64,000 nucleotides of DNA from a virus (IMGVR_UViG_3300014039_000019:1-64000); one strand, 5' to 3'. Shown: positions 10,174-34,238, counted from the stretch's first letter. The notes: a model not told the origin generated them from the letters alone. Made by a program: numbers and translations.

Positions 10174-10478
10174 TCATCAAATTCATCATCAAATTCATCA
10201 TCAAAATCATCTATAAAACTATTTAAATCAGTTTCTTCTTCTACGTTTTCTTCTTCTACTGCCGAAGAACTTGTAGAAGAAGGAATATTTAATCCTGCTA
10301 TCTTCTCTAATAATATATTTATATCTATATTATTGTTTACATAATTTTGTTCTCGTTTCCTTTCTATTTCCGCTAAATCTTTAAGAAATCCAGATGCACT
10401 TCTTTTAGAATTTATATATTCATATAATTCTATTTCATTTTCATAAAATCTTATTCTAACTTCTTTTATTTTTGCCAT
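10170..10478 (-). CDS. ParR-like centromere-binding adaptor
   Basis: RHH-like N-terminus (VRIRFY..E.ELYEYI....SASGFLKDL), acidic tail, overlaps parM-like gene. Confidence 0.7.
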   Translation of the reverse strand: MAKIKEVRIRFYENEIELYEYINSKRSASGFLKDLAEIERKREQNYVNNNIDINILLEKIAGLNIPSSTSSSAVEEENVEEETDLNSFIDDFDDEFDDEFDD

Positions 10479-11386
10479 TTCTTTAACCCCATTAAACGGA
10501 AAGCTCTCGCATTAACCGTAATATCATCTACTAATATTGTTTGAGGATATTCTTTTTTGAAGTATTCATCGCCTGTGTTTGCTCCACCTCCTGCTAAAAT
10601 TAAATTACATGAAGCAGCACTTGGGAAACTTCCTTTAAATTCATTTAATAATTTATTCATAAAGGCATCTTGGAAATCTTTAAGGAAAGAGTAATCTTTT
10701 ATATTAATCATTTTAATTTCTCCGTCAAATACTTTTTTAGCATCTTCAAGACTAATTTTGCAATATTTCATAGAAATATATTTCTTTACATTATGATATA
10801 GCTCTAATAATCCTATATCTAAAGATTCTCCATCTACAAATTTATTTTTTTCATTAAATATAGAAATATCAGTTGTTCCTCCTCCTATATCTACTATAAG
10901 TGATTTGGCTTCTATTTGTGCTTTATTTACAGATTTTAAATTTTTAATTCCATAACCTTCAGGACGAATTGCTACATCTTCTATATAGATAGTTCTAGTA
11001 ACTTTATTCTTACCTGATCCAATAGTTATCTTTTTCATGTTATTTTGTTTTACTAATGCTTTTAATACTTCACCATATTCATTATATTGTCCCGCAGGAA
11101 TTCCTAATACAAGTTTAATTCTATTGTATTTACTTACTTTAGCAAGACCATAATAAAGTAAATCAAAGAAATTATCTTTTTCAAATTTTAAATGTTCATT
11201 TTTAAATTCCCCTTGATTAACTATCCATTTATCGTCTGTTTCGAATATTTCATTATCCCCAAGTTCTTTAATAATAGAATATTTTTCTATTCTACTTTCT
11301 ACGATTAAAGCATCGTTACTTTTATCTCCTAAAAATATACTTGTTATATTGCCTATGTCGGCACCGCATATACTTACATTATTCAT
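10466..11386 (-). CDS. parM: ParM/StbA actin-like partition ATPase
   Basis: ADIGN, LVLGIP, RPEG, IVDIGGGTTD, LAGGGA, NARAF; start ATG 11386 after GGAGG. Confidence 0.9.
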   Translation of the reverse strand: MNNVSICGADIGNITSIFLGDKSNDALIVESRIEKYSIIKELGDNEIFETDDKWIVNQGEFKNEHLKFEKDNFFDLLYYGLAKVSKYNRIKLVLGIPAGQYNEYGEVLKALVKQNNMKKITIGSGKNKVTRTIYIEDVAIRPEGYGIKNLKSVNKAQIEAKSLIVDIGGGTTDISIFNEKNKFVDGESLDIGLLELYHNVKKYISMKYCKISLEDAKKVFDGEIKMINIKDYSFLKDFQDAFMNKLLNEFKGSFPSAASCNLILAGGGANTGDEYFKKEYPQTILVDDITVNARAFRLMGLKKWQK

Positions 11387-11401
11387 ATTAACCCTCCATA
11401 T

Positions 11402-11498
11402 CATTTAAATAGGACTTTTTGCCCTTTCTGATATTATTATATGATAGATATTCAAAAAATACAACTACTTTTTAAAAAAAATCCATTTAAATTGGACT
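11402..11498 (-). promoter_or_regulatory. par promoter flanked by candidate ParR operator/centromere repeats
   Basis: CATTTAAAT(A/T)GGACT at 11402-11416 and 11484-11498 around TTGTAT-17 nt-TATAAT. Confidence 0.5.
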
Positions 11499-11562: not shown

Positions 11563-12183
11563 TTATTCTGATTTAGGAACAAATGTTTTAGAAACACCAT
11601 TTATAGTTACTATTAATTCTCCATTATCATTGAATGATAATTGAGGAATTTTATTATTTACATATGTTTCAGTTGCATATCCTTTTAAAGATTGGTGCTC
11701 TGTTAAATATCCTTTAGAAGTTAACTCTGTTTCAGTAATATATTCATCAGGAATAGTAGTTAAAAACTTGCTATCATTAGTCAATTCACTTACTTTAGTA
11801 GGTACAGTTATTGCATCAATCAAACCTTTTAATATCTTACCTTGTTTAGCCGATAAAGGTTTATTCGTAGTTTCTGTTGTTAAATTATCAATTATATCTG
11901 AAACATTTACCTTACTTGTAGTGACCCCGTCAATTAAAGATTTATTATTTTTTATATATGTAACTATTTCTGATAGCTGATCTAATGTTTCATCATCTGA
12001 ATCAGCAAGTGTATTTAATTTAGTTGTTAGATTTGCTATAAGAGTTCTAATGTCACTATGAGATTCGTTTGAACTATTGTGTTCAGTTATTTCGGTATAT
12101 AAATCATTGTGTAAATCATTTTTTTCATTAAAAATATATTGTTTCAATCCTCTTATTAAAAAATTTATTTGTTTTAAATTCAT
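11563..12183 (-). CDS. tail-fibre-like protein
   Basis: HN...SHSDIR, IIDNLTT...PLSAKQGK, VSELTNDS, YLTEHQSL fibre repeats; shared C-terminal tag. Confidence 0.7.
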   Translation of the reverse strand: MNLKQINFLIRGLKQYIFNEKNDLHNDLYTEITEHNSSNESHSDIRTLIANLTTKLNTLADSDDETLDQLSEIVTYIKNNKSLIDGVTTSKVNVSDIIDNLTTETTNKPLSAKQGKILKGLIDAITVPTKVSELTNDSKFLTTIPDEYITETELTSKGYLTEHQSLKGYATETYVNNKIPQLSFNDNGELIVTINGVSKTFVPKSE

Positions 12184-12195
12184 AAAATCACCTTC

Positions 12196-13710
12196 CTATA
12201 CTGGATAATTTGTATCTACACTTAAAATTATATCTCCAGTTACATTTTCAATTTTTATAGTTGCAGTTTTTGGTGAAGATGAAGTGTTCATTGTTACAAC
12301 ACCTTCATTAGAAGTTATGTCTACACCGTTCATTTCTACTTTATTTACTCTTAAAGTTTTTCCGCTAAATGTAAATTCAAAATTTTTCCCTTTTTCTACT
12401 CCTATAATTGGAGGCATTAATGCTACGCCTTGATTAGAAACACTATATAAAATTGAAATACCATTCTCTGTTAATGCATTTTCAAATTCTTCATCTGTTA
12501 TATCTTCACTTGTTCCAGCTGTTATATTATCATCAAAATATTTTTTAGTTATCAAATCTTTATCTTCTGTTGGCGTACCTTCTTGTGTTAACTTGCCTGC
12601 AAACCAAGCATTACCATTCCAATCTAATGTGTGAGCATTACTTCTTTCCATGCCACTTTTGCCGTTACCAACTATGTGAGCGTATTTACTACTTTTATCT
12701 TCTATATTATATTTACCTTGAACGTGTTGATAATCTGATGAAGCAGTCGTAAAACTACCTTCTACATGAGATGCTTTTCCATAAGCGTTTGTTCCCTCTC
12801 CTTCTGCATGAGAAGTTTGCCCCTTAGCTTTCGTTTCCTCTCCTTCTGCATGAGATGCCCATCCACTAGCAGTTGTATTCTTACCTTCTGCATAAGAACA
12901 TCCTCCTGACGCTTCAACGATTTTCCCAATAGCAACACTATATTCTCCTATAGTTGTTCCTTCTTTCCTATTCATACTCATACTGCCAGTAAATACAGGG
13001 TTTTCTCCAGTAAACAGCATAGGAGTTAAAGGAACACTAATTTCAGAAATCTTGTCATCCCCCATTCTTCTAGTCAACATAATCCATTTATAAGGGGAAT
13101 TAGTAGTAGATGTTAAAGTTACTTGACAAACAATATCCCTAGCACCACTCATTGATTCTACTTTAAGAATTTCTATTTGTATTTCACAATTACCGCTTAT
13201 AGGATTATCTTTAGCTCTACTTTGTCCTCTAAACACTTGATTTATTTGAATATCAACTGTATCTATAAGAGTGTCTAAAGATTGAAGAATAGTACTGCCT
13301 GCATCAAATGATACTTCTGTAGTCGCTAAGTCTGTGAATATTTGTATAGTTTTATTTTCACCTATTTGTTCTTGTATAGTTGGTAATTCAGTCCCCTGAT
13401 CTATTTTCTCTCCACTTTCTTTAAGTAAATATAATTTACCTTCTTCAACTTTTGTCTCACATGGAATACTATCATTAATTTCACTATCGTCTTTGTTATA
13501 TAAACAGCATACATACATTTCCCATTCTTCTGTATTTTTAGGTGTAGGCAATTTAACATTATGAAGTAGTTTAATTAATTCTTTATCATTTATTCCGTAA
13601 GATTTAATTGTTTGATATACTCTGTATATTTGAATTGTCGTTCTAGGATAAGAGATTTTACCATATCCCTTACTATATTTATTATTAAAGTATTTAATTA
13701 ACTTGTTCAT
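12196..13710 (-). CDS. fibre/adhesin with YadA-head-like SHAEG repeats
   Basis: shared N-terminal module; SHAEG repeats; HIVGNG..RSNAHTLDWNGNAWF. Confidence 0.75.
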   Translation of the reverse strand: MNKLIKYFNNKYSKGYGKISYPRTTIQIYRVYQTIKSYGINDKELIKLLHNVKLPTPKNTEEWEMYVCCLYNKDDSEINDSIPCETKVEEGKLYLLKESGEKIDQGTELPTIQEQIGENKTIQIFTDLATTEVSFDAGSTILQSLDTLIDTVDIQINQVFRGQSRAKDNPISGNCEIQIEILKVESMSGARDIVCQVTLTSTTNSPYKWIMLTRRMGDDKISEISVPLTPMLFTGENPVFTGSMSMNRKEGTTIGEYSVAIGKIVEASGGCSYAEGKNTTASGWASHAEGEETKAKGQTSHAEGEGTNAYGKASHVEGSFTTASSDYQHVQGKYNIEDKSSKYAHIVGNGKSGMERSNAHTLDWNGNAWFAGKLTQEGTPTEDKDLITKKYFDDNITAGTSEDITDEEFENALTENGISILYSVSNQGVALMPPIIGVEKGKNFEFTFSGKTLRVNKVEMNGVDITSNEGVVTMNTSSSPKTATIKIENVTGDIILSVDTNYPV

Positions 13711-13751
13711 TTAATCAACTCCTTAAAATAATAACCCCTTTCAATTGATTT

Positions 13752-14912
13752 TTATGCTTTAGGTGTAAATGTTTTTGTTACTCCGTTTATAGTTACTACT
13801 AACTCTCCGTCAGAATTAATATATATATCGTTAGTACTTAATAATTTTTTACCATTATTTTGATTATCGCCTTTGACATATACATCGCCTGCGAACCAAG
13901 CATTGCCTTTCCAATCAAGAGTATAAGCATTACTTCTTTCTGTATCATCAGTACCATTACCAACTATGTGGGCATACTTATCATTAGCATCCTCTATATT
14001 ATATTTACCTTGAACGTGTTGATAATTTGATGATGCTTTAGTACTAAACCCTTCTGCATGAGATGCATAAGCCATAGTATAGGTTTCTGTACAACTTCCT
14101 TCTGCATGAGAATAATCTCCTCTAGCGACTGTATTTCGTCCTTCTGCATGGGAATCCTCTCCATAAGCTAAATTATAAGAACCTTGAGCGCAAGAACAAT
14201 TCCCATCAGCAGTTAAATCCCTCCCAATAGCAATAGAATTACGACTTGAGGCTATTGCTCCTTCACCAACAGCAATACTATTATTATAAGCGAATCCTCC
14301 AATTACAATATTGTCTTTTGGAGTTATATATATATCGCTAATATAATCTGTAATTTCAAAAATTTTAATAATTCTTCCTTGAGGAAATTCATTAGACGAA
14401 TAAATACTCATTTTATTATCTAATGTATTAGTATAATATTTTATACCGTTTGAATCGTAATAAACAGAATCATAAGAAGTAGAATCTTGTACTCGATATA
14501 AGGAATCAAAATCTATCCCTATATAAATAACAAATTTATTTAACTTTTGAAAATCTATATCGTATTTAGAAAAATCTAGTACCCTATAGTTCCCAACCAT
14601 ACTTTCATAATATTCTAAATTATTTAATTCATCTGCGGTTAGCTCAATAGTATATTCATTTAATATTTGTGGCATCATTTTATTTCGAGGTATTCCGTCA
14701 TTAATACATTCTGAATACATTTCCATTTCTTCCATTGTTTTAGGTTTAGGTAATTTAATACTATGTAATAATTTAGTTAATTCATTATCTTCAATATTAT
14801 AGTCTTTAATTATTTGATAAACTTGGTATATCTGCATTGTTGTTCTTGGGAAAGAAATCTTTCTATATTCTTTCCCATAATTTTTATTAAAATATTTAAT
14901 TAATTTATTCAT
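13752..14912 (-). CDS. fibre/adhesin with SHAEG repeats
   Basis: same N-terminal module, SIAIG/SHAEG repeats, shared C-terminal tag. Confidence 0.75.
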   Translation of the reverse strand: MNKLIKYFNKNYGKEYRKISFPRTTMQIYQVYQIIKDYNIEDNELTKLLHSIKLPKPKTMEEMEMYSECINDGIPRNKMMPQILNEYTIELTADELNNLEYYESMVGNYRVLDFSKYDIDFQKLNKFVIYIGIDFDSLYRVQDSTSYDSVYYDSNGIKYYTNTLDNKMSIYSSNEFPQGRIIKIFEITDYISDIYITPKDNIVIGGFAYNNSIAVGEGAIASSRNSIAIGRDLTADGNCSCAQGSYNLAYGEDSHAEGRNTVARGDYSHAEGSCTETYTMAYASHAEGFSTKASSNYQHVQGKYNIEDANDKYAHIVGNGTDDTERSNAYTLDWKGNAWFAGDVYVKGDNQNNGKKLLSTNDIYINSDGELVVTINGVTKTFTPKA

Positions 14913-14920
14913 TATTTCAC

Positions 14921-15739
14921 CTATCTTTCGAATACTTCTACATATTTACTACTAGCAGTTATATAATAGCCTGCTTTAACTAAATACATATGCGTACCAC
15001 AACCAGTATCAGTAACTTCTTTCACTATAGTTACACAAGTTCCTGCTTTAACCTCTCCAATCACAGAAGAAGAATTGAAATCAGGAGTTTTATGTATATT
15101 AACATCTTTAAGAACTCTTAAATATTTTGTTTTAGTAGTTGTAGTATTAGGAATTTGAGTAACATTACCTTTACCATTAGTACAGTTTACGATGTCAGAT
15201 AGTTTTATTTTACCTGCCTTTAAATTGTAACAATCTAATCTAAATTGTTCGTATTTTTTTGGATTTAAAACCATGTAAATTGGACACAATTTATATGCTC
15301 TACCAACAACATCTGTGTGTCTAATTATGTCTTTCTTAGGGTTTAACCCTTTATTTGCGCACAACCAAGCACAAAGATGTACCATAGCTTTATATGTAGC
15401 ATCTGTATAATGGTTATCCTTACCTGTGGTTGCCACTTCAACTCCAACAGCATAAGAATTAGCACTATTAGTACAATAACACATTTCATTCAATGGGATT
15501 AATTGATATATTGTTCCGTCTAGGTCAATTACAAAATGAGCAGATGCGTAGATATATCTTCCGTTTACTTTATATCCGTTTGCCACAACATTGTTAAAAT
15601 AGCTAACTGTATTTTTTCCCGGAACATCTGCTTGACCTGTGTAGTGTATTGCCACTTTAGTATAATTTAATTTAATTCCGGGTCTACCGTATTTATTAAA
15701 TTTCATAAATTTTTCTATTATTTTTGGTTTTTGAACCAT
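14921..15739 (-). CDS. endolysin, N-acetylmuramoyl-L-alanine amidase (Amidase_2) with SH3-like C-terminus
   Basis: IHYT, SAHF, GVEV, RHTD, KLCP zinc-amidase motifs. Confidence 0.9.
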   Translation of the reverse strand: MVQKPKIIEKFMKFNKYGRPGIKLNYTKVAIHYTGQADVPGKNTVSYFNNVVANGYKVNGRYIYASAHFVIDLDGTIYQLIPLNEMCYCTNSANSYAVGVEVATTGKDNHYTDATYKAMVHLCAWLCANKGLNPKKDIIRHTDVVGRAYKLCPIYMVLNPKKYEQFRLDCYNLKAGKIKLSDIVNCTNGKGNVTQIPNTTTTKTKYLRVLKDVNIHKTPDFNSSSVIGEVKAGTCVTIVKEVTDTGCGTHMYLVKAGYYITASSKYVEVFER

Positions 15740-15757
15740 AAAATCATCTCCTTGTTA

Positions 15758-15789
15758 AAATAAAAAGAGCAGAGAACAATCTCTACTCT
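15758..15789 (-). terminator. probable weak terminator
   Basis: AGAG(C)AGAGA..TCTCT(A)CTCT stem with T-run on - strand. Confidence 0.5.
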
Positions 15790-17339
15790 GATTTAGGTAC
15801 AAATGTTTTTGTTACACCATTTATAGTGACCACTAATTCTCCCGCATCATTAAATGATATATCTTTTGTACTTAATAATTTATTTCCTTCATCTTGATTA
15901 TTTCCTCCGACATAAACATCCTTTTTAAACCATGCGTTACCATTCCAATCTAATGTATGTGCATTAGAACGATGACTTTCTCCTGTCCCATTCCCAACGA
16001 TTAAAGTATATCTATCATCTTCATTTATGTTATTATATGCCCCAAAAGCAAGTTGTCCTGCTGAATTTGATTCTACACACATTCCTATGGCAGCACTATT
16101 AGTTCCACGAGCAACGGTTCTTTCTCCAACAGAAAGGCTTCTATCCCCTTGAATTTTCCCATTAGAATTATCGTAATTCGTACCTACTTGAAGTGAATCA
16201 GAAATTGTTGCACTTGCTGGTAAATAAACCCCATTTTGAATTTTAAAGTTTTTATCTATTTCATACAAGCTTATTGATAAAGAAAGATTAATAGAATGGA
16301 ATATACTTTCACAAGTACAATTAAAAGATGTAGTTTTATTTTTTTGAAATACAAGTTTTGTATTTTCTTTACTTGCTACTACATATATATATAATTTTAA
16401 ATCTTTTTCTTTATCAATATACATAACCATTGAAGTATGAAGATATTCTAAGTCTCCTCTATAAGAATGATATAGTCGATAAGTTCTTCCTTTATTTATT
16501 TGAAGATAATAGTCCATGTTTTGATAAGCTAATCCTTCTATTCGTGCGCTATTTATAATCCATGTATGCGTAGACATAGAAGAATTAGAAAAAAAATCAT
16601 CAATAGCAGATTTACTTACATCTGTATTAAATACTTCTCTTAATGTATAATCTTCCTTAGAATCAACATATTTTTTATTAACTAAAATATTACTATCATC
16701 GTTATCAGATATAGTGTCAGAAAATTTTATAGGTTTTTTAATGTTTAAATATTTTTGTGATTTATTAGCCACAAAACATCCATCTAAATCAATATGATTA
16801 GGAGAAATTGATATATAACCGTCTTTATTTCCTAAATGAATAGTTTCAGGCATTAATTCTGTATCAATTTTCTTTAGTTCTATAATTTCATATATTTCTA
16901 AATCTGTTTTAATATCAACATACCCATCTGTTAAATCTATTTCAAAATACTCTTCATTAATTATCGTATCTTCTTGCTCGATGTCATAATATGAATTAGG
17001 ATATATATTAATTTCTCCAATAGAATCTTCATGGTAAAGAGCTGTCCCCCAAGGAGTTAGTTGTGGATACATAAAAAATTGTTGATTTAAAAATTTTATA
17101 TAGTATTTTTTATTTGTATCAATTTCTAAATGTTTATTAAAATAAGTATAACGATAATTATTTGACATATTCCATGTTCTATTTATTAATTCTTCTTTTG
17201 TTATTTTTAAAATTAATTTCTTTTTTACATAACAAGGTAATATATCATAAACATCTGTATTAATTTTTTTATCTACCTGATCTAAAGTTTTATTAAAATC
17301 TTTTTTTAATTCTTGTAATAATATATCTTCGTTTAACAT
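15783..17339 (-). CDS. fibre/adhesin protein
   Basis: VGNG..RSNAHTLDWNGNAWF and C-terminal ISFNDAGELVVTINGVTKTFVPKSE. Confidence 0.7.
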   Translation of the reverse strand: MLNEDILLQELKKDFNKTLDQVDKKINTDVYDILPCYVKKKLILKITKEELINRTWNMSNNYRYTYFNKHLEIDTNKKYYIKFLNQQFFMYPQLTPWGTALYHEDSIGEINIYPNSYYDIEQEDTIINEEYFEIDLTDGYVDIKTDLEIYEIIELKKIDTELMPETIHLGNKDGYISISPNHIDLDGCFVANKSQKYLNIKKPIKFSDTISDNDDSNILVNKKYVDSKEDYTLREVFNTDVSKSAIDDFFSNSSMSTHTWIINSARIEGLAYQNMDYYLQINKGRTYRLYHSYRGDLEYLHTSMVMYIDKEKDLKLYIYVVASKENTKLVFQKNKTTSFNCTCESIFHSINLSLSISLYEIDKNFKIQNGVYLPASATISDSLQVGTNYDNSNGKIQGDRSLSVGERTVARGTNSAAIGMCVESNSAGQLAFGAYNNINEDDRYTLIVGNGTGESHRSNAHTLDWNGNAWFKKDVYVGGNNQDEGNKLLSTKDISFNDAGELVVTINGVTKTFVPKSE

Positions 17340-17350
17340 AAAATCACCTC

Positions 17351-18106
17351 TTATTGTGGGGATTGTTCAGAAATTTCTACTAAACAAGGCTGACTCAATA
17401 CAGATTTATCTTCCATAAAAACATTTAAAATCATGTAGAAATAAACATTATAAGTTATAAAATGTCCGTATACTATATCATTAGGAGAATCATAATTTTG
17501 AAGATATTCTGAATCATCATTTACATTTTCCTTAGACAATTCTTCTAATGCTCCTTGAATATCGGATATTTTAATCATATAAAGTTTTAAAGAATATCTG
17601 TAAGAATCATCTAAAGACTCATCTGCCACATCTTGTATATTATTATCATGAAGCTCTAAAACCAATATATAATCTAAATCTATTTGAGTTAAAGAGATTC
17701 CTATAAGAGTTCTACCATAAATCAAATTGACATTAACAGGTTTATATGAAAGCGCAGAAAGACTTTGAGGACTCGTTCCTTGAGGTGGTCCGGAAGGTGT
17801 TTTTAATGTAACAAAATTCAATTCGATATCTTTATATGAAAAATTTCTTTGGATTACAAAAACATGAATCGCTCCACCTGTTTCTAAAAGATTATTTATT
17901 GATTCTGTATCCTTTATTCTTAGTTCACAATAACCATCATGATTTACATATTGACATTTTATAGGAGTTAATTTACTTCCACCACCAATATTACTTCCAT
18001 CAATTCTATACATCTTACCATCTTTCCCTAAAGCCAACACAGTATCGACTTGTTCTTTATCTTCTAATAATGGTAAATCTGTTACTTTTGTTCTTAAATC
18101 ATTCAT
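17351..18106 (-). CDS. hypothetical tail-region protein
   Basis: ORF with GGAG RBS. Confidence 0.65.
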   Translation of the reverse strand: MNDLRTKVTDLPLLEDKEQVDTVLALGKDGKMYRIDGSNIGGGSKLTPIKCQYVNHDGYCELRIKDTESINNLLETGGAIHVFVIQRNFSYKDIELNFVTLKTPSGPPQGTSPQSLSALSYKPVNVNLIYGRTLIGISLTQIDLDYILVLELHDNNIQDVADESLDDSYRYSLKLYMIKISDIQGALEELSKENVNDDSEYLQNYDSPNDIVYGHFITYNVYFYMILNVFMEDKSVLSQPCLVEISEQSPQ

Positions 18107-18117
18107 TGTATCATCTC

Positions 18118-18444
18118 CTAAATTTCTATTAATTTATTATTTTCATCTGATAAATATGTTCCGTCAGATAACATTAAAGCATCTACTACTAATCCATAAT
18201 AAAGCATTTTATCTAATGTTTCGTTTTCATAGTTTAAACATTCAGAATAAAATTCTCTTTCAGTTATATTTCTAGGTTTAGGTAAGACACATTCTTTAAG
18301 TAATGAAATTAAATATGTATCTGATATATTGCAATCCTTTATTGATTGATATGCTTGATATATTTGGATTGTTGTTCTAGGATATGCTATCTTACCGTAT
18401 TCTTTTCCATAATTTGTGTTAAAGTATTTAATTAATTCATTCAT
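18118..18444 (-). CDS. paralogue family member (shared module plus short tag)
   Basis: MNELIKYFN..YPRTTIQIY..LPKP..E.YSEC. Confidence 0.7.
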   Translation of the reverse strand: MNELIKYFNTNYGKEYGKIAYPRTTIQIYQAYQSIKDCNISDTYLISLLKECVLPKPRNITEREFYSECLNYENETLDKMLYYGLVVDALMLSDGTYLSDENNKLIEI

Positions 18445-18455
18445 TTAATCAACTC

Positions 18456-18863
18456 CTATACAGGTGCGTTACCATATACTCCATCTCTAGTATAAATATT
18501 TATCGCTTTATCTTCTAATCTTATTTCCACACTTTCAGCAGTACATATTATATCCTCATCGTTTTCCACTAAAATAATTTTACCTTTTCTTATAGCTTCT
18601 GCTATTTCATCTATTTCATCTTCCCATTCTTCTTTTGGTATACTTATAGTGTAATATTCATTTCCATCTTCATTTAAAGAAAAATAATCTTTCCATGAAT
18701 CTATTTTAGGCAATTTAACATCTTTTAACATTTCTTGTATTTCATCATTTTGTATACGAGATAAGAATTTATATGTTTTTAATATTTGTAAGTCTGTTTT
18801 TGGGTACGGAAGATAAAATATGCCACCGAATAACTCGTTATATTTATTTATTATTTTATTCAT
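18456..18863 (-). CDS. paralogue family member
   Basis: MNKIINKYN..YPKT..VKLPK. Confidence 0.65.
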   Translation of the reverse strand: MNKIINKYNELFGGIFYLPYPKTDLQILKTYKFLSRIQNDEIQEMLKDVKLPKIDSWKDYFSLNEDGNEYYTISIPKEEWEDEIDEIAEAIRKGKIILVENDEDIICTAESVEIRLEDKAINIYTRDGVYGNAPV

Positions 18864-19210
18864 TGTTCCTTTTCTCCTTCAAGATAATAATACAATACGC
18901 CATTTCTTTCATAAACTTGATGATATCCATATGCATAATATGAATCATATAAATTTTCAATGTATTTATTTCCCGTTTTAGAGATTCTAATATTATCAAT
19001 ATAATCAACACATTCTCTATATATGTCTAATTCTTTAAGAGTTGTTGGTTTTGGTACTTCTATTTTCTCAAATAATTTTCTCAATTCATCATCATCATAT
19101 TCATTTATTTTATTTTGTAAAAATAAGTAAACATAATAAAAGTCTGTTTTAGTTTTTGGGTATTCTATTTTAGAATATTTTTTATTATATAGTTTAATTA
19201 ATTCGTTCAT
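18860..19210 (-). CDS. paralogue family member
   Basis: MNELIKLYN..YPKT..VPKPTT..E.DIYREC. Confidence 0.7.
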   Translation of the reverse strand: MNELIKLYNKKYSKIEYPKTKTDFYYVYLFLQNKINEYDDDELRKLFEKIEVPKPTTLKELDIYRECVDYIDNIRISKTGNKYIENLYDSYYAYGYHQVYERNGVLYYYLEGEKEQ

Positions 19211-19226
19211 ATTTAAACTCCTTTCT

Positions 19227-20033
19227 TTATTGCGGTATTTGACCCATTAAAATACTATTTTCAGATGCTTCTGCTAAAAGTCCTAAACAGGAAGATTTTA
19301 AAATTATTTTCTTTTCTTCTTTATTTATTTTCCAATAAGGTAAGATTCCGTCAACTCCCATATATATAGATTTACCCTTTTTTATTGCATCTAATACTGT
19401 ATAATAATTATCTTTTTGAGTTAAAAAATATTGATTTTTATCCACAGATATTGGAAATGGGATTGAGTCACAATATAAGTCTATTTCGTCTATATTTTTA
19501 GGAAATGGGAGAATAGTCTCGTCTATATAATCACATAAGCTATCATCGTTAATATAATTATTTACAGTAAATATAAAATTATATGCTCTATACATATCCA
19601 TTTTATTTTTAGGATATTCTAACTTAGGCAACTCAAGAGAATTTATATATAATGTTAAAGAACAGTTATTTTCGTTTATAGATATACCATTTGTTCTTAA
19701 AACAATCTCATCTCCCTTTATTATAATCATAACAGAATTATCGTTATATCCATTTACCTTATGCCCGTTTCTTACACTCTGTTTCATAATTCCTTCATAA
19801 ACTTCCCCGTCTGTTTTTAAAATATAACCAATAGATATCGGTCTATTATCTTTTATTTTTGGCACTTTAAATAATGGATAATAATGAATTTCTTGTGGAC
19901 TTATTAAACCAGCATCATTTCTAAAATCATCATATTCATCGGCATTTAATAATTTAACAGGTTTTAAATCTTTACAAATATATTCTCTTTTGTTAGTATA
20001 TCTCTCGTTAAAATAATCAATCAACTCTTTCAT
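19227..20033 (-). CDS. paralogue family member with internal insertion
   Basis: MKELIDYFN ... ~120 aa ... YPKN..Y..Y..LPFPKN..E..LYC. Confidence 0.7.
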   Translation of the reverse strand: MKELIDYFNERYTNKREYICKDLKPVKLLNADEYDDFRNDAGLISPQEIHYYPLFKVPKIKDNRPISIGYILKTDGEVYEGIMKQSVRNGHKVNGYNDNSVMIIIKGDEIVLRTNGISINENNCSLTLYINSLELPKLEYPKNKMDMYRAYNFIFTVNNYINDDSLCDYIDETILPFPKNIDEIDLYCDSIPFPISVDKNQYFLTQKDNYYTVLDAIKKGKSIYMGVDGILPYWKINKEEKKIILKSSCLGLLAEASENSILMGQIPQ

Positions 20034-20615
20034 CTAATCAACTCCTTCAAAGTCTAATTTAATACTAAATACTTCTTCTTCCGTCTTACAATTTCTAATT
20101 TTAACTTCTATCTGTTGTTGTTTTTCTACTAATGGCTCAACATATAATTTTATCTCTTTAGATAATCTTCCTAACTGCTCAAAAGAATAAGATTCACAAA
20201 CATTCTTTGTATCATTCCATTTCAAATTCGATTCTGTTCCAAATATATTATCTAATTGATATGAAAGTAAAGTACTTGTTAACAGTTGTTGTTTTTCCAT
20301 CGTCACATTGTAATATCTTCCTTCTTCATATTTAACAGTAGAAAATAGAGGATTATCTTTAAGATATTGTGCTAAATTATTTTTACTTAATTCAATTCGC
20401 TGCTCTTTTAATTCTTTAAGTGGATCAGCTTCTTCAATCTTTTTTTCTATCTCTTTATAATTAACATCTTCAATGACAGAATAAGCACTAGGAGCCGCAT
20501 TGACTCCTAGTATCACATTCCCTTCATAAATCTCTCCATCTTTATAAATCACATAACCTTCTTTTGGTTTTAATATTCTATAACCTTCTTTTTCTATTAT
20601 CTCTATATTATTCAT
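20034..20615 (-). CDS. tail fibre assembly-like protein (DUF4376-like)
   Basis: YNVT.EKQ..L, WN...C.....EQL..L...I..YV.PLV..QQ..E; start ATG 20615. Confidence 0.65.
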   Translation of the reverse strand: MNNIEIIEKEGYRILKPKEGYVIYKDGEIYEGNVILGVNAAPSAYSVIEDVNYKEIEKKIEEADPLKELKEQRIELSKNNLAQYLKDNPLFSTVKYEEGRYYNVTMEKQQLLTSTLLSYQLDNIFGTESNLKWNDTKNVCESYSFEQLGRLSKEIKLYVEPLVEKQQQIEVKIRNCKTEEEVFSIKLDFEGVD

Positions 20616-20623
20616 ATAATCAC

Positions 20624-23600
20624 CTACGCTAAAGTCCAACCTTTTGCTACCGCATCTGCTATTTGAGCTTCTGATAATCTTTCTAATGTTGCCTTACCTA
20701 ATGTTAGTGTTTCTGCTTGTACTGTTCCTAAACCATTCATAAGAGATTCTATAGTAGCAGTAGGAGTTAATTCTAAATTATACATCTTATATGAACTTGT
20801 TAGCTTTTTAGTATTTCCTTCTTCATCAGTAGCAAATACCCAATCCTTCATAAATTCAAAAGATGTATCATAAGTTAAATACCATTCATTATAATTTGAG
20901 TTTCTATCATCTCTATGAAGATTACTTAAATCTATTCCTTTTATTGATTCAATGTACTTATCTTGTCTAAACATGCCACCAAAATCTGCTTTACTTTCTA
21001 GTCTAGTCATATCTAATTCTACATTTACTAATTTTCTACAATAAGCAAATATATTTCTGTTTTCAGAGCAAGTTTGTGCATCGTCATTAAAATATAATGA
21101 GTAAGGGAATTTAATATAAGCATCTGTAAGCTCTCCACAATTATTACAAAAACTATAAAATCCATAAGAATATGTTCCATTAAATTCTGCTCTAATAGAT
21201 TTCATATTCGCACATCCTTCAAAACAATATTGAGAACTTGTTCTATCAGAGTTAACTACTATAGATGGATTTATTAAACCATGACAACCATAATAAATAT
21301 AATCCATATTATTTACATTATAAGGAAGAGTTTTGTAAATATTATCATCTGTTAATGAAGAGCAACCATAGCAACAAGAACGCATATTACATTTATCATT
21401 AAAATCAGTAGGTAATGGAATTACATTTGTTAATGATTTATCTCCATAATATGTTCCTTCCATTGTTATTACTGTTGCGGGTAAATTAGCTCCCCCAATA
21501 GTTACAGAAGTTAAATTAGGACAATCTCTAAATGCCCAATCCATATATTGTAAAGGAGTACTTTCTGTTATTTCTTCAAGATGTAATTCTGTTAAAGATG
21601 TGCAACCTCTAACAAATCCACTCATTCTCTCTAAGCTAGTTAAAGTAGGTAATGCCAATTCAGTTAATTGAGGGCAATAAGCATACATTTGATTTATATT
21701 TTTAGCATTTACATTTATTGTTCCTACTCTTTTTAATTTAGGGCAGCTAGCGAACCAGTTTGTAGTACTATTAGCACCAGTCATGTTTACACATTCTACT
21801 TCTTCTAGGTTTCGACTATTTTGGAATAAGCTTTCAGAACTCCACCATACATTTGTGCCGCTACAAGTAATTGTTCCAACTTTTACAAGGTTTGAATTTC
21901 TAAAAGTACCATATGCTATGGCATTTCCTTTAAAATTACATTCTTTAATGTATTTAAGATTAGAACCAACAAAAGGTGTATCTCCGTAATTATAATCTGC
22001 TATATTATAATTATTTTCTATTGTAACTGCCTGTTCTTCATAAGAAGATTGTTCTTGAAGTGTTGCATATTTATAAGTTCTTCCTAAATCATCTCTGTCT
22101 TGTAATAATTTAAAAAATCTACCTGCAAATTCCCAAGTAAAATCTGGGTTCGTACAATCATAGAATATGCCTCTTACTCTAGTCAGTCTATTATCTATTA
22201 GATAATCCCAATCATTAGGCATTGTAATCTCTAAATCATCATTAGTAAAATCAACATTTGTAAACCACCAATAAGCTTCTGTCCAGTCAAAGCTAGATAA
22301 ATCTATTTTCCCTTGAACTTTTACTTCAGGATAAGATTCAGAACCTCTTTCTTTTATATTCATATTATTAAAAGAAGGACTTACATATACATTTTTAGTG
22401 TTTACTCCTTTAATAGTACCAGTAGATTGTGGTAATCCAGATAAGCATAACTCTGTTAACTCTCTATTTCCAAAATCTATTCCTTCATATCCGTCTGGGT
22501 GGTCGTCTTTAAAATATATATTTTTTAAAGTACATTTTGATTTTAAACAGTTGTTAGGGTAATTAGTAGTTGAGAATCCACACATCGGTTTAATCCATAT
22601 TGTTTTTAAAGTAGAAGGAAGAATTATTGTACTTAAATCTTGAGTAGTAACATTACAAGTAAATGTTTCTAAATTTTCAAATTTAGTTAAATCTATTGTA
22701 TCAGCATCACTATTGAACCACTTATCTTGCCTATTATCATATTGATGGATTCTAAAAGTTTTTATATTTGGACATTCTGTAATATTAATATTATTAAAAT
22801 CAAAAGAACCGCACATATCGTTCGTAGAATTCCATTGATGACCTGTTTGAGTTTCTCCTATAGTTAATTCTTGAAGATTAGGTAAATATTTTAATGTTAA
22901 TTCCTCTAATCTGTAATTTAATCTAAAAGACATATATTTAGTAGATAGCATACTATTTTCTATATGAATAGAAGTTGCATTACATAACCCTAATCCGAAA
23001 AGCGCCATTTTTCTAAACTTAGTAGCATCTTCATAATCTCCTAACGTATCTGCGCTTCTAGCATTTCCGTTAAAATCATAAAAAGTACTATTATTCCAAC
23101 CGTTCATACTTATATCTGAACGGGCAGTAAGTCTTTCTACTAAAGGACAGTTTATTAATGTAAATGCCGTTATATCACTTGCTCCACTTAAAGCTTCTGT
23201 ATGATATGGAGAATACCAACTGACACTCGTTAAACCTACAATTCTCAAAGCATATTGATTTCTTAAATATAATGATGTTATTGTTTTAGGAAGATATATT
23301 TCTTCTAAGTTACCACCATTATTATTAAAGTTTACACCTGTCATTTTAGTTCCTCTTATATCTAAGTATTTTAAGTTTTGACAAGTAGCTAATTCCATAA
23401 CTTGATAACTGGTTAAACTACCTAAATTGGCACAACCATTAAAATCTATTTTTTGTAAGTAATCACAACCATTTATCTCTGCATTTACTAATTTTGAACT
23501 GTTTCTACATATTACCTCATTTATTCTCGTAGCATTTGACAGAAGTAAATGAGTTGGGTTACAAGTACTTAAATCTCCTAAAGACTTAATATACTCTGCT

Positions 23601-26600
23601 CCATATATAATAACTTCCTGATCTGTTTCAGTAGTGATATTATAACTAAATTTGACTGATTTATTTCTTGGAATCTTTAATGTTTGCATACCTGTTCCAT
23701 CTGCTTCGTCTCTCCATTTTACAGATAGATACATAGGACTATAAGTAGATATATTCATTGATACTATACCTTTTTTGTTACAACGAACAGTAACAAAGTT
23801 AGAAGTAGAAGGTTCATATCCGAATAATGTATCACAATATAATAATCTTTCTTTTAGCCATCTTTTTATTTGGAAATATCTGTTGCCATGACAAGCATAT
23901 AAATATTTTGCTCCGAATCTTAAATATTTATATTCTGTTGATTTGTTGTAGTATCTTACTGGTATCTTATCTATTTGATTATCATAGAAATATTTATACA
24001 TATTATCAAGTGTAAATACTCCATTTCTCATATTTATATATTCTTGTTTTAATTCATTAGCAAAATAAAGTCTTATTTTACTCCATAATTTAGAGTTAGA
24101 TGTATTAAATACTCCACCTTCAACTTCTATGTCAACATCGAAAGTTAAAGCACCTGTATTGTCTAATCCCAAAAGTGTCACTCTGTTACTTTCACCTTTC
24201 GGTTACCGACCATATCTCTATGGCGGAAGAGGTTCTTCTTTAATCAGTCTGGTTACTGATGACCCCTTCTCTCTAGTTTCGTTTTTAGATTATAGCTAGA
24301 GTTCAGACTGTTACATCGTTTTATTATTTAAAACGTCTTTTCGTTCAGTCGTTGTTGGTGATTCTGTGATAATATTAATTGTTTCTTTTAATATATTTTT
24401 TATATTATTTTTTTCAGTATAAGGTATTCTTAATAAGTATATTCCGTTTTCTATGCAATACTTATCTTTAATACGGTCTCGTAATTGGGTTTGTTTTAAT
24501 TGTTCTATTGAAAAATCCATTCCTCTTCCCGTATAATCAGTTGGCATAAAATGTCCTTCTCCATCATATTCTATCGCTAAATTTAAATCGGGGACATATA
24601 TATCGAATCGGATATGACTGATTAATTCATTTTTTAAATTAATATGTTTTTCTTTAACAGAATCATATCCTAAATATAGTAATTCATTTTGAATTATTGA
24701 AGGATATTTAGATATTAAACATCCACAAGAAAACGTGTGTCCGCTTCTTAAAGAATTACTTAAAACAACAGTTATATTTCCACAATCGCATTTGCACTTA
24801 CAAATTGTTTTGCCATATTTATTTTTACCTATTTCTTCAATAACTGTTAATTTTCCGTATTTTTCTCCTACAATACTTTTTATACTCATTTTTTCACTTG
24901 CTTTTTTCTTTCTTATACATCCACAATTTTTAGATAAACCTCTTTTTAAATTTTGGTATTTAACTTTTTTAATTGTTCCGCAATCGCATTTGCAAATAGC
25001 TACTAATGGCTCATTTGCTAAATGTTCTTCGAATCCTAAAATTGTCCACATATTATATTTTTTACCGATTTCAGCTTTTTTGTCAATTTTATCTCCTGAA
25101 CATATTAAACATTTATCCCTATTTTTTAAATTATAGTATCTTACTGTAAATTCATGCCCGTTCGAACATCTTACTAATAATTTTGTTTTTGTATTTTTAT
25201 ATTCTTCTTCTTTAGTTAAAAGAGTATATCCCATTTTTTTTACTTGTTCTTTTATATTTTTATAAGTTATTTTTTTACCCATTTTATCACCTCTTTTCTA
25301 TTATATCCATTTAAATATTGTTGTTAACCTTATTATCACAAAATCTTCCAAGGCGTTGCCTATCTCTAGGTTTTCGCCGCATATTAGAAAAGATTTTACT
25401 TGGACTACTCTTAATCCAAGTCGTACACCTGAATGTACCATTTTACACCATCAAATGTAACTAATTTCATATTTTTTCCAAGCGAATCGACACCACCGAA
25501 TACTTGGACAAATAAATAATATCTAAATACCGATTGTCTATCAAAATAAACATCAAATTGACTTTTAAATAAATCCTCATCAGCGCCACTTACAAAATCA
25601 ACTAATGTTTTTAATTCTGCAAAGTTATCATTACCATTTTGTCTACTTGGAGGATATAAACATTCAAAGTCAGAAGCATAATAATTTTGTTCTGTTTTAC
25701 CACTCTTAGAAGTCCAAGAGTTAAAAGCACCTGCTGTTTCATCTGTATTGGCAGATACTTCATAAGCTAAACATTTATCAAATAAATTATATCCATAAGA
25801 ACGATAACTATATCTATCTAAGTTAAAATCATATAATCCGACAAATTCATCATTTATATATAAAAGTATAGGGAAACCTTCTATGGCTTGTCTAACTTTA
25901 TTATTCTTTAATTGAGCAGGATTCTTTTCCACATATAGATTGTCATTAACGAACATAGCGGACCCTGTATTCATAGCATTAGAAGATTCCATTTGATTAC
26001 ATTTTAAACAGAATAAATTTTCTAAAATACCATTTTTAAAAGGAGTATAAAATACTTGGTTACCATCACTATCTCCTAATTCTATATTGTAATTCTTATT
26101 AGCATATTGAATAGAAGAAGTCCCTTGCCAATACATATTACATCTAGGATATTCAAAAGATGCTCCATATAGATCAGCATTAGGTGAAACATATTTTATT
26201 CTGACTTCTTTTTTATTTGTTAAAGTCATATTACTTATATCCCCATAAACATACATACAAGGCATATAAGCATCGTTATAATTTTTATTATATTCTTCTT
26301 CTTGTTGTTCTATAGGCATATCTGCTATTCTATTTTGCAAAATTTCTTCATCTGATAATTCTCTTTCGTACATCATTATTCTTTTTATTTTACATGAACC
26401 AAAATTACTTGTTCCTTTTTCGCTATTCAAATATATTTTTTCTGCGTGCTTTATTTGTTCGTAAATTATTTGACTACCAGAAGATGAATCCGATAATTGG
26501 AATGGGTCACAGCATACTCCATTAACAAGTATCTTCCCAAATTTAGAAACCCTATCAATCATAAAGGTAATTTGTATATCTTCTCCTTGTCCTATATCTA

Positions 26601-28068
26601 ATTCTGTCTTATGTGATACAGTAGATAAATTAGCTTTATACGGATTAATATATAATCCCGGATAAGGAGCAGAAAGACTCGTACAGTCTATAACTCTAGC
26701 TAAAGGATTTCCTATATCTTCTACACTAAATACCATATCTAAAGTAAATCCTCTTGTAACATTTTCACTAAAAGGTGTCATATCAATTTCTACATATGTA
26801 TTACCATTTAATACTAATTCTCCGTCTATCCAACCATTAGTACCGTAGTTTGAATTATATAATTTTCCTATATATCCGTTTATATCATCTACCCAATAAC
26901 CTCTATCAACATCTGAATTAGTTTTATTTTTAGCGCTAAAAGAAGCAATCAATCCTGCGCTAACATATTCCATAGCTTGATAACTAGAAGCAACCAATTC
27001 AAAAGTTAAATCTAATGTAGCAGTTTTACTTTTATCGGAATTATAAGCTTCTATTCTTATAGTATGCGTTCCTAATTCATAATCAGGAGTAAAAGTCCAA
27101 TAATAGTTTCCGGGTTGTTGAGATAATGTTTTAATAGGTTTCTCAAAATCATCTACATACATATTAACTGTATAATAATCTGTATTAGCTATAGACACCC
27201 TATAGTTAATGTTTATAGGTTGACCTTTTTCATATTGTTTACTTGTATCAAAATTTGAAGTTATAAATAATTGGTCAGTAGCAACAACTATAACGTTAAA
27301 TATCTGTGGAGCAGTAGAATAAATATCCGCAGTTGCATATATCTCGACTCTGTGAACTCCTACCGTTAAACCTTTAATCTCATAAGAGTTATATCCTTTA
27401 CTAGATTTAATTGTGTATTCTGTTCCATCAATAGTAATAATAGTATTTATATCAGTTTGTAAATCACATTCGATATTATAAGTTAAAAGTATTCTATCTT
27501 TAAGAGTGTAGTCTATGTCTGTATTCATTGTTACAGTTAACTTAATACCACCACAAACAATATCCCATGTTAATTGGTTAGACATAAGACCTCCTCTATC
27601 TCTTACATAGATAGAAAGTCTCTTTTTACCACTACCCAAAGCAGGTATTTTAATGGTATTATTACCTTGAGAAATTGTTTGTATAGATGTTTCTACATTA
27701 TTAATTAAAACATATAACGTACCTTCTCCTAAGTTTGGAGATGTATAATAAATAGGAATTGTAAAGTCCTTATCTCCATCAATAGAAGTTTCATTCCAAT
27801 CAGTAGTAAGAGTAGGCATAGTACCTCCTCCCCCACCTCCACTTGGATGGTTTTTAATATGGTCAGTAAGAGTAGAATTGACCGCATCTATAATGTCTCT
27901 ATTAACCTCTATTTGCCCCTTAGCATCGCCTAATTCTCTTAAAGCACCTTCTACGTTATCAGATTCAAAATTGCCCTCTAAATCTAAAAGAGCCACCTCT
28001 AATGCATCAGAGGTAGCTCTTCTTTCATATTTCTTCGTTTCTTTATTATATTTTCTTATTGTAGGCAT
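20624..28068 (-). CDS. spliced CotH-kinase / LamG / leucine-rich-repeat protein, about 2069 aa (exons 28068-25414 and 24178-20624)
   Basis: QGTSS..Y..KNY, LK, EGFP, DSLGKN and YDLD|TLLGLDNTG restored by intron removal; C-terminal LRR/BspA-like repeats. Confidence 0.85.
24179..25413 (-). mobile_element. group I intron in CotH kinase gene
   Basis: P1 ACUUGGAU/GUCCAAGU with U-G at the exon end; P7 GACUG/CAGUC; P9.0 ACUC/GAGU; terminal G; in-frame junction. Confidence 0.92.
24311..25282 (-). CDS. intron-encoded homing endonuclease (Zn repeats plus Vsr-like/EDxHD domain)
   Basis: CSNGH..C..C, two CxCDCG..CGC repeats, FDIYVP..AIEYDGEGH..RD..K..RIPY. Confidence 0.85.
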   Translation of the reverse strand: MGKKITYKNIKEQVKKMGYTLLTKEEEYKNTKTKLLVRCSNGHEFTVRYYNLKNRDKCLICSGDKIDKKAEIGKKYNMWTILGFEEHLANEPLVAICKCDCGTIKKVKYQNLKRGLSKNCGCIRKKKASEKMSIKSIVGEKYGKLTVIEEIGKNKYGKTICKCKCDCGNITVVLSNSLRSGHTFSCGCLISKYPSIIQNELLYLGYDSVKEKHINLKNELISHIRFDIYVPDLNLAIEYDGEGHFMPTDYTGRGMDFSIEQLKQTQLRDRIKDKYCIENGIYLLRIPYTEKNNIKNILKETINIITESPTTTERKDVLNNKTM

Positions 28069-32638: not shown

Positions 32639-33805
32639 CTAAAAACTAAATGTGTATTTTATTTGAGATACACTAGCCTTATTTTTTATTTTATAAATAT
32701 AATAATTAACATTATTAATGTTTATTTCTTCTTTATCAAAATCATTTAAATATTCGAATCCGTTTCCGTCTTTTATGCTTTTTAATTCCCCATAACTTTT
32801 TGGGTAAGCATAGAAAACTCTTTTATCGGAATAAGATAGATTTATTGATTTATTTCCTTTTATTTCTACTAATTTTGTTCCTGCTTTAATATTTGTTTCT
32901 GTCAAACTATCAATAAATGTTCCATAGTAAAAAGGATAAACAAATGAAAAAGTTATACTAGAACTTCTTGTATTATTCTTACTGTCTGTAACTGATAATG
33001 TAAAAGTTTTTGTATCTGAAATTGTTGTATTATATGTATAACTTGTATCTTTAACCCCAATCGTACAATCAGTTAAACTAATTGATTTAGGAGTCATACT
33101 TGTAGTCCATGTAAACGTGCAACCGTTTATAGTTTCTACTCCTTTTTCATATACCGTCTTAGATAAATTACTTCTAAAAGAAGTAATAGATATAGGTTTA
33201 TAAGTTAAATCGGAAATTTTTTCACTTAAACTATGTATTCCTTCTTCTATTTTATTCATTCTTACAGAAGAAATTATATCTGCTGTTTTCCAAAATGTTT
33301 TAACATATATTCCATTTTCATCAAATATAGTAACTTCTTCTGCTACATCTCCTACATAAGAAATATCTACTCCTGTTATATCTACTTGCCCGATCTCCGA
33401 ATCATCTTCGTCAAATAATGGCTCTAAAACATGGAATTGATTATAAATAGGAGGAATAGTAATAAATCCATCATCTTCGTCATATAAATCTATTTGGAAA
33501 ACATATGTCCCTACTTCTGCTCTTTCATCTATTAAATCTTCTGTAACAGAAAATTTAGCATATCCATCTTCTACTTTTCTTTTTTCTGTAAAAAATTTTG
33601 TACCATCTGGCTTAATAACTCTAAATCTAGCATATTCGGCATTATAACTAATAATGTAATTAATTTCATTTTCAAATTTAAAACAAGCATTTTTAATTTC
33701 GAAATAATAATCTACGTTTTTATTTTTTCTGTATAGATAAATATTTTTATCCATACTGGCTTTATTCCCATTAACTGTTATCGTATAATTATAAAAAATA
33801 GCCAT
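32639..33805 (-). CDS. BppU-like baseplate upper protein
   Basis: KPDG, IDE..EVG.Y.FQIDLYD, TIPP; Ig-like C-terminus. Confidence 0.75.
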   Translation of the reverse strand: MAIFYNYTITVNGNKASMDKNIYLYRKNKNVDYYFEIKNACFKFENEINYIISYNAEYARFRVIKPDGTKFFTEKRKVEDGYAKFSVTEDLIDERAEVGTYVFQIDLYDEDDGFITIPPIYNQFHVLEPLFDEDDSEIGQVDITGVDISYVGDVAEEVTIFDENGIYVKTFWKTADIISSVRMNKIEEGIHSLSEKISDLTYKPISITSFRSNLSKTVYEKGVETINGCTFTWTTSMTPKSISLTDCTIGVKDTSYTYNTTISDTKTFTLSVTDSKNNTRSSSITFSFVYPFYYGTFIDSLTETNIKAGTKLVEIKGNKSINLSYSDKRVFYAYPKSYGELKSIKDGNGFEYLNDFDKEEININNVNYYIYKIKNKASVSQIKYTFSF

Positions 33806-33815
33806 AAAATATCAC

Positions 33816-34238
33816 CTATTCTGTTGCTTCGCTATCTTCGAAAATAGGTGCAAGTACATGAAACTGTTCTATTACAGGAGGTATGGTTACTCTCCCTTTA
33901 TTTGTCGCATTATCATATAAATCTATTTGAAAAGTATATTTACCTATTTCAGACACTTCATCCATAAATTTATCATCTATATTTAATTTAACTTTACCAT
34001 CTTCAATAGGAATATTTGTTATTCTTTTTTTTACACCATTAGGTTTTAAAATTTTTATATCTGCGGTAGAAGCATTTAGACTTTCTATCATATCTACTGC
34101 ATCAATAAATTTAAAAGGAGCATTTTGTATTGTAAAATAATAAGTTATGTTTTTATTATCTTTATATAAATATATGTTTTTATTTAATTTAGCTTTATCT
34201 CCATCTACGGTTATCGTATAGTCATAAAATATTGCCAT
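33816..34238 (-). CDS. BppU N-terminal domain protein (paralogue of next gene)
   Basis: MAIFY.YTITV.G.KA..KNIYLY, KPNG, FQIDLYD, TIPP..QFHVL.P.F. Confidence 0.75.
   Translation of the reverse strand: MAIFYDYTITVDGDKAKLNKNIYLYKDNKNITYYFTIQNAPFKFIDAVDMIESLNASTADIKILKPNGVKKRITNIPIEDGKVKLNIDDKFMDEVSEIGKYTFQIDLYDNATNKGRVTIPPVIEQFHVLAPIFEDSEATE

Follow-up and report, generated by a model that had tools for sequence, protein, structure and literature searches.

The DNA analysed, hereafter the window, comprises the first 64 kb (64,000 nucleotides) of a 143,173-bp IMG/VR virus record (IMGVR_UViG_3300014039_000019, positions 1-64000; CheckV completeness 96%). Between positions 12,196 and 20,033 it carries six open reading frames (ORFs) on the minus strand, W504, W386, W108, W135, W116 and W268, whose products share an N-terminal module of about 70 residues (Table 1). 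These ORFs had been proposed by a model working from the sequence alone (the initial annotation); all six were found in place, and they align over the module, with N9, P22, Y32 and P55 invariant. When W108 was searched against all six frames of the entire 143-kb genome, exactly these six places were returned, at E-values of 5e-27 (W386), 7e-23 (W504), 1e-8 (W116), 5e-7 (W268) and 9e-3 (W135), and hidden Markov model (HMM) scores of the module ORFs were 86-121 bits. At the level of sequence, the six-copy paralogy is far beyond chance.

Table 1 Features of the window bearing on the module. Positions are counted from the first nucleotide of the window; dN/dS is the ratio of nonsynonymous to synonymous substitution rates of the part named
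Feature	Position	Strand	Module position	Description	dN/dS
W504	12196-13710	-	13501-13710 (residues 1-70)	module, linker, SHAEG/YadA-like fibre body; phrog_25468 on cargo	
W386	13752-14912	-	14703-14912 (residues 1-70)	module, SHAEG repeats, variant of C-terminal hairpin motif; YadA_head	
W108	18118-18444	-	18235-18444	stand-alone carrier (putative); module and conserved 38-aa C-peptide	module 0.06; C-peptide 0.13
W135	18456-18863	-	18660-18863	trio; module and C-terminal 'KGK' domain	module 0.24; C-terminus 0.36
W116	18860-19210	-	19004-19210	trio; module and Tyr-rich C-terminal strand region	module 0.08; C-terminus 0.46
W268	19227-20033	-		trio; split module and 'KGK' C-domain	
W268, helix 1	19986-20033	-			0.11
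W268, beta-domain insert	19638-19985	-			0.60
W268, helices 2-4	19458-19637	-			0.45
W268, 'KGK' C-domain	19230-19457	-			0.57
W251	17351-18106	-		module-less; conserved downstream partner of W108; putative passenger	
W518	15783-17339	-		module-less SHAEG fibre ending in hairpin motif; cassette with W108 and W251	
W206	11563-12183	-		module-less fibre segment (Pfam Phage_fiber_rpt) ending in hairpin motif	
Hairpin motif sites	11572-11634 (W206); 15792-15854 (W518); ~13755-13825 (W386, variant)				
W201	20034-20639	-		highly conserved, directly upstream of trio; phrog_1348 'tail fiber protein'	
W388 and W140	32639-34238	-		paralogous; N-domain co-occurs with module	
Tal-like minor tail protein	45232-46956	-		phrog_6211; upstream of module genes	
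Dit	46957-47706	-		phrog_33; upstream of module genes	
ParM partition gene	10466-11404	-		phrog_691	

The copies of the module in the window are only 71-75% identical in DNA and have no long exact blocks, so its conservation acts on the protein; recent gene conversion among the copies was rejected on the same ground. The ~15 nt before the start codons of W504, W108 and W268 are near-identical (AAGGAGTTGATTAAATG, coding strand; 13711-13728, 18445-18462 and 20034-20051), and the duplicated unit therefore includes the ribosome-binding site. The internal two-fold repeat that the initial annotation had read into the module was not upheld, the likeness being limited to ten residues (KISFPRTTMQ / KLPKPKTMEE) with an hhalign score of 11.6 against at most 11.3 in 20 column shuffles, which is not significant. 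Its description of the C-termini as unrelated holds in part: W386 and W504 share a SHAEG/YadA-like body, on which phrog_25468 was matched at 2e-20 for W504 and 2e-11 for W386, and the cargo of W386 matches PF05658 (YadA_head) at 27 bits (cut-off 25). W135 and W268 likewise share the 'KGK' C-domain (hhalign probability 97.5%, E 6e-12) and are paralogous over their full length except for an insert in W268. This insert, annotated as ~120 aa, is real and measures ~115 residues, splitting helix 1 of the module (residues 1-16) from helices 2-4 (residues ~133-192).

Structure prediction with AlphaFold2 from a 119-sequence alignment gave the module as a compact four-helix domain (predicted local distance difference test, pLDDT, 93-97; predicted template modelling score, pTM, 0.70), with helices modelled at residues 2-16, 25-37, 43-51 and 60-70 and a disordered linker at residues 74-90. 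The proline motifs YPxT and LPxP sit in the loops preceding helices 2 and 4. Scans of the module proteins against Pfam, PHROGs, NCBIfam and PADLOC gave no entry matching the module, its PDB sequence profile returned nothing credible, and Foldseek against PDB and BFVD gave no match with E <1 (E ≥2.9); the exhaustive VIA-align search reached a top Z of 5.1, which is the noise level for a small helical domain. A known non-structural domain, which the initial annotation had raised as a counter-case, was thus looked for in these libraries and not found. The module is a real finding that no library entry explains.

In the model of W268 (mean pLDDT 80.8), helix 1 is followed by a beta-rich insert (17-130), then by helices 2-4 (144-188) and finally by a small alpha/beta C-domain. 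Designed four-helix PDB chains that match the isolated module also align with this model over residues 1..193, which suggests that the two parts of the module come together again around the insert. For the insert itself the best fold rows were tip domains of phage receptor-binding proteins (RBPs), namely phage K gp144 (Z 5.5, root mean square deviation (rmsd) 3.9, 87 aligned) and T7 gp17 (Z 5.3, rmsd 3.2, 78 aligned); at scores below any safe threshold, this modelled likeness is a hint only. As a separate observation, W268 (residues 69-81; 19791-19829) and W201 (residues 28-40; 20520-20558) share the 13-residue motif GY[IV][LI].[TK]DGE[VI]YEG, with 8 of 13 positions identical and E 0.002 for this single comparison, which could reflect a small beta element common to the two proteins or coincidence. 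Homology of W201 to the W268 insert was dropped, this motif being its whole basis.

A profile search of 1.84 billion representative proteins gave 129 matches at E ≤1e-3, among which the module starts at residue 1-13 in 120 and is split as in W268 in 7, the other 2 being spurious repeat proteins. Together with word-index matches, a family set of 135 proteins was obtained, with lengths of 46-1598 aa (median 390) and conserved residues common to all module types. The Pfam domains found as cargo were BNR sialidase with LamG, GH16 with LamG, CotH, GDSL lipase, DUF285/leucine-rich repeat (LRR), Ig-like domains and phage fibre repeats, to which a pectate-lyase-like beta-helix is added, and tblastn with the SHAEG cargo of W386 hit Flavobacterium and Verrucomicrobia phage genes with a tail spike or tail fiber annotation. 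The module was not found in 50,697 phage records (tblastn, including W116), in 72,556 plasmid records (tblastn with W108), in the tail-distal region of phage phiCD211 or in the fetched loci (4-22 kb) of ten contigs from metagenome-assembled genomes (MAGs) and genomes with the same cargo type; a viral-contig scan with the distant module subfamily gave 0 matches. By these sequence comparisons the cargo is widely shared and the module lineage-specific, as expected of a part that fits the phage's own tail.

The lineage is one of large clostridial-type siphophages, probably plasmid-like and distantly related to phiCD211. The window has a G+C content of ~24-32%, and its minus strand forms a long late operon with Dit, the Tal-like protein, giant tail proteins, a CotH/LRR protein, the module genes and ParM. 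Closest among cultured phages were the Clostridioides difficile siphophages phiCD211 and phiCDIF1296T, whose Tal-like protein is 36-38% identical over its full length; the phiCD211 group consists of big plasmidial siphoviruses (PMC5786514). ParM is nearest to Clostridium and Clostridioides plasmid ParM (43% identity), and megablast of the locus against the 50,697 phage records gave 0 matches. Since the module lineage was not found in any bacterial genome of the species collection, the host can be named only as clostridial-type; genome-contig scans gave cargo matches only, or none.

Exchange of cargo behind the module was seen directly, identical modules being joined to different cargos in proteins of 386 and 881 aa and of 497 and 1895 aa. 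In 51 of 82 informative pairs the N-terminal homology stops at residues 70-78, and these breakpoints coincide with the predicted end of the domain and start of the linker. Selection was assessed on 'module-A', the highly conserved version of the module carried by a variable gene set between endolysin and ParM: the median dN/dS was 0.16 (153 usable of 171 pairs, 19 copies), and the module is under purifying selection. In the small proteins it is the most constrained part, with dN/dS of 0.06-0.24 against 0.13-0.60 for the distal parts.

We hold, with moderate confidence, that the module is the virion-proximal anchor of modular tail fibres and RBPs, a self-folding four-helix domain of ~70 residues that occurs in fused, carrier and trio forms. 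Most likely, a known principle, the anchor for interchangeable RBPs that is either fused or separate, is carried out here by a new, lineage-restricted protein family. The docking adaptor for interchangeable heads that the initial annotation had suggested is favoured, indirectly, by the N-terminal position, the cargo types, the breakpoints, purifying selection, the carrier pairs described below and a location among tail genes in four lineages; its attachment to the virion we infer. The module would be the part of the anchor nearest the virion, followed by a disordered linker to whatever cargo comes next, and recombination at the linker would swap cargos. Cargo could be mounted by three routes: by fusion to the module, as in W386 and W504; by a small carrier whose C-terminal peptide would hold a module-less fibre, as proposed for W108 with W251 and probably W518; or by W268, W116 and W135 joining at their C-terminal parts to form a particle of three chains that bears three modules.

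Gene order was compared in nine IMG/VR loci and one NCBI contig (L030). W108 consists of the module and 38 aa, with no receptor-binding or enzymatic part, and the module-less W251 and W518 come next. Its orthologues are 92% (L007 and L030), 75% (P0002) and 37% (P0088) identical, and length and C-peptide are kept in all. L007, L030 and the distant L026 all retain the W108-W251 pair. P0088 is followed by a homologue of W251 (31% identity, E 2e-15), and in P0070 the module is fused directly to a W251-like domain, by a weak match (E 8e-5). A second carrier-passenger pair comprises a module protein ending in '...KSKKIIIKKGE' and a module-less protein beginning with 'SDANIIEINGIEVNLEDA', with sizes of 138 and then 949 aa in L010 (8001-11272) and of 402 and then 512 aa in L030 (13716-16468), and occurs in two different gene contexts. 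Genome G001 (99% complete) has one module gene (138 aa) and no trio, with large module-less fibres immediately downstream. Judged from gene content, supply of the module in cis or in trans would be consistent with these patterns. As to its placement, the W108-W251-W518 cassette precedes the lysis genes in both the window and L030, whereas in L007 it follows the endolysin.

The short ORFs W108, W116, W135 and W268 might also be non-functional N-terminal stubs left by cassette recombination. Real stubs do exist in relatives, namely a W386 orthologue split into 85 and 317 aa (L013:2074-3235) and a broken module gene with a 59-aa ORF and an in-frame TAG (G002:C1:36568-36812), and they show what decay looks like. 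In contrast, 7-8 related phages have all four short proteins in full length, and dN/dS outside the module is below 1 (0.13-0.60); the C-peptide of W108 is still present where overall identity has dropped to 37%, and the overlap between the stop of W116 and the start of W135 is preserved. The stub reading is largely refuted by the full-length conservation and the dN/dS values, and we regard it as extremely improbable.

The trio of W268, W116 and W135 is conserved in 8 related loci, with identities across relatives of 55-66%, 78-87% and 69-83%, respectively. In the window the end of W116 and the start of W135 overlap by 4 nt (ATGA), and in relatives the trio genes abut or overlap. For complex prediction W135 was set against W268 plus W116, each protein with its own, shallow orthologue alignment (8-14 rows). 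The median interaction prediction score from aligned errors (ipSAE) was 0.65 (runs 0.70, 0.65 and 0.30), whereas the best control, with W268 replaced, reached 0.32 and two partner-replaced controls gave 0.00; the ipSAE mark used is attained in 58 of the 80 solved complexes and in 2 of the 110 mismatched pairs, figures that are only approximate for three chains with custom alignments. Agreement between the runs was at least 41% of contacts, and partner pLDDT was at least 69. PDB sequence profiles of W268, W116 and W135 each gave nothing credible; no trio protein has a solved sequence relative, and the pass is thus unlikely to be memory of a known complex. These predictions support a hetero-complex of the trio.

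Within the model, the most confident contacts are strand pairings of W116 residues 104-111 with W135 residues 103-117, and the homologous C-domain of W268 (219-222 and 232-239) and its helix 4 also touch W135. Of the contacts, those listed with the lowest expected error all join the C-terminal part of W116 to that of W135, none being module-module. What the model suggests is a particle of three chains that are joined mainly at their C-terminal parts and display three modules, much like a homotrimeric fibre. The hetero-oligomeric scaffold of the initial annotation is supported for the trio, which passes a controlled complex prediction, and not for the other module proteins, and its best contacts run through the C-termini instead of the modules.

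Some module-module and module-C-domain contacts do appear in the trio model, and they would fit a module that serves as an assembly or oligomerisation element, an N-terminal trimer cap or a fibre-chaperone tag, with no contact to the baseplate. Minimal proteins of 116-155 aa that consist of module, linker and the C-terminal hairpin motif only, together with the conserved residues common to all module types, point the same way. The monomer, however, is confidently self-folding on a disordered linker, carrier-passenger pairs are hard to reconcile with a folding tag, and the known folding nuclei of fibres are usually C-terminal; an assembly element is accordingly an unlikely explanation. Extending the anchor reading, the trio might form a heterotrimeric pseudo-fibre, an asymmetric hub of three non-identical modules, with the module as a universal plug for up to five RBPs plus adaptor-carried passengers and a combinatorial RBP display as the outcome. 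We put this forward tentatively, as a possibility that is rather doubtful in its entirety.

W206 and W518 end in exact matches to the hairpin motif FN[DE]xGELVVTI(NG/GE)VxKxFVPK and W386 in a variant of it, and the motif is present in 26 of the 135 family proteins; in relatives, W206 is the C-terminal part of long module-bearing fibres. It was seen only in loci of this lineage, and neither in phiCD211 nor in MAG prophages with similar cargo. By analogy to the T4 fibritin foldon, as a short beta-hairpin-like motif at the very end of fibres, the simplest guess would be a foldon-like trimerisation element, which is conjectural. Its restriction to the same lineage as the module, its absence from phiCD211 and the same-cargo MAG prophages and its place at the fibre ends would also be expected if the module were a fibre-to-fibre connector that binds the hairpin motif of another fibre to build branched or serial assemblies. 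Many module proteins have no hairpin motif, though, some phages have just one module protein, and foldon-like trimerisation explains the motif more simply, which makes a connector quite improbable.

In the loci compared, the gene order is CotH-LRR giant, W201, W268/W116/W135, holin and endolysin, 1-5 module-A proteins and ParM, and the module-A proteins are mosaic among relatives. In most of them the endolysin stands directly after the trio, preceded by a holin-like ORF of ~112 aa; the window endolysin (14921-15739) lies between W518 and W386. The usual position of module-A genes after holin and endolysin raises the question whether the module proteins are virion parts at all: the module could target lysis-released enzymes or adhesins to the host cell wall in the manner of SLH domains, or be regulatory. 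A weak similarity in structure to an SLH domain (8bz2_A; Z 4.1, rmsd 3.0, and Z 4.6, rmsd 2.6, 58 aligned each) would agree with this, but these Z values are at noise level, and no module protein has a Pfam SLH match. Against such a role, the module has no Pfam, NCBIfam or PADLOC match, no obvious signal peptide was seen by eye, without a predictor, and the cargos match annotated tail spikes and fibres. In L032 and L033, moreover, module genes sit inside the tail module, following a Phage_tail_C protein in the former and abutting a W388-type gene in the latter. A non-virion function is on this evidence very unlikely.

Several points weigh against the module as a virion anchor. Module-A genes stand behind the endolysin in most relatives, an unusual place for structural genes. 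Module genes range from 1 to at least 8 per genome, and sockets of a fixed number would need to accommodate this variation. Among known anchor domains nothing recognisably related to the predicted fold was found, the top Z being at noise level. The trio complex is a model from shallow alignments in which one of three runs gave just 0.30, and the presence of the proteins in the virion, like their docking partner, is what we infer.

The first candidates for a socket are W388/W140 and W201, in view of the co-occurrence of the W388/W140 N-domain with the module and of a fusion in G001. A protein with this N-domain occurs in every module-bearing lineage checked (G000, G001, G002, L029 and L033/L034), and in L033/L034 its gene directly abuts a module gene. 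The N-domain was not found in the module-less phiCD211, nor detected in the examined part of L032. L010:3448-4431 (G001:C1:53383-54366) encodes a 327-aa protein that joins the W388 N-domain (70% identity) to the W201 C-domain, which in the window belong to separate genes ~12 kb apart. An earlier label of W388/W140 as 'BppU-like' could not be verified: W388 has no Pfam match (W140 had no Pfam scan), neither protein matches in PHROGs or NCBIfam, and the PDB sequence search with W388 was empty.

RBPs of Klebsiella phages have either fused anchors or a stand-alone anchor protein, KP34 gp49; stand-alone carriers form the pairs KP34 gp49 with gp57 and KP32 gp37 carrying gp38, and the RBP anchors were delineated at 135-178 aa (PMC8262889). 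Like the anchors of KP32 gp37 and KP36 gp50, the N-terminus of T7 gp17 and the head-binding domain of the P22 tailspike, the module is N-terminal, conserved over an exchanged C-terminal part and discrete in its boundary, and as in these modular RBPs the cargos include enzymes of depolymerase type. Unlike these anchors, to which no sequence or fold similarity was found, it has ~70 residues, is all-helical with a disordered linker and occurs in 6-8 paralogous copies per genome, and its attachment to the virion is putative. W108 and the 138-aa protein of L010 resemble the KP34 gp49 type as anchors without a receptor-binding part that lie upstream of anchor-less fibres in conserved pairs. They differ in being tiny (108-138 aa) and in sharing their anchor with fused RBPs of the same genome, and the binding of passengers is here suggested by gene pairing and the weak fusion case. 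Further stand-alone adaptors are those of SP6/K1-5 and G7C gp66/gp63.1.

CBA120 (TSP1-4), phiK64-1 and phi92 are branched multi-RBP systems of Gram-negative myo- and podophages, with gp10-like XD domains or T7-like anchors. There as here, one phage encodes several RBPs that all need mounting, whereas here one small helical module is repeated. In lactococcal phages TP901-1 and Tuc2009 the baseplate proteins BppU, BppA and BppL hold RBPs through N-terminal domains; the likeness lies in a Gram-positive siphophage in which Dit and Tal precede proteins with N-terminal RBP-holding domains, and the difference in the lack of detectable homology to BppU, BppA or BppL.

Which specificity modules a phage is able to carry depends on its RBP anchors, which are well mapped in Gram-negative phages and poorly known in large Firmicute siphophages. 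The module defines ~130 sequence clusters outside every domain library searched and marks the N-termini of diverse candidate RBPs and depolymerases in uncultured clostridial-type phages; its profile would let annotators find such proteins together with their exchange boundary. A small all-helical fold without a relative, in six to eight paralogous copies per genome, is unusual, and the predicted three-paralogue hetero-complex, the tiny carriers and the domain inserted in the module go beyond textbook anchors. If the asymmetric trio hub and universal plug are true, RBP display would be built on a fold with no known relative.

Further upstream, the CotH-LRR tail gene is split in the window into 25411-28068 and 20624-24181, with an HNH-endonuclease ORF (24311-25282) between the two parts. 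In relatives it is unbroken, as a 2,068-aa ORF in L030 (1-5360) and contiguous in L007 (36-4955), L008 and others. A group I intron noted earlier fits this HNH insertion, which is present in the window and absent in L030, L007, L008 and others.

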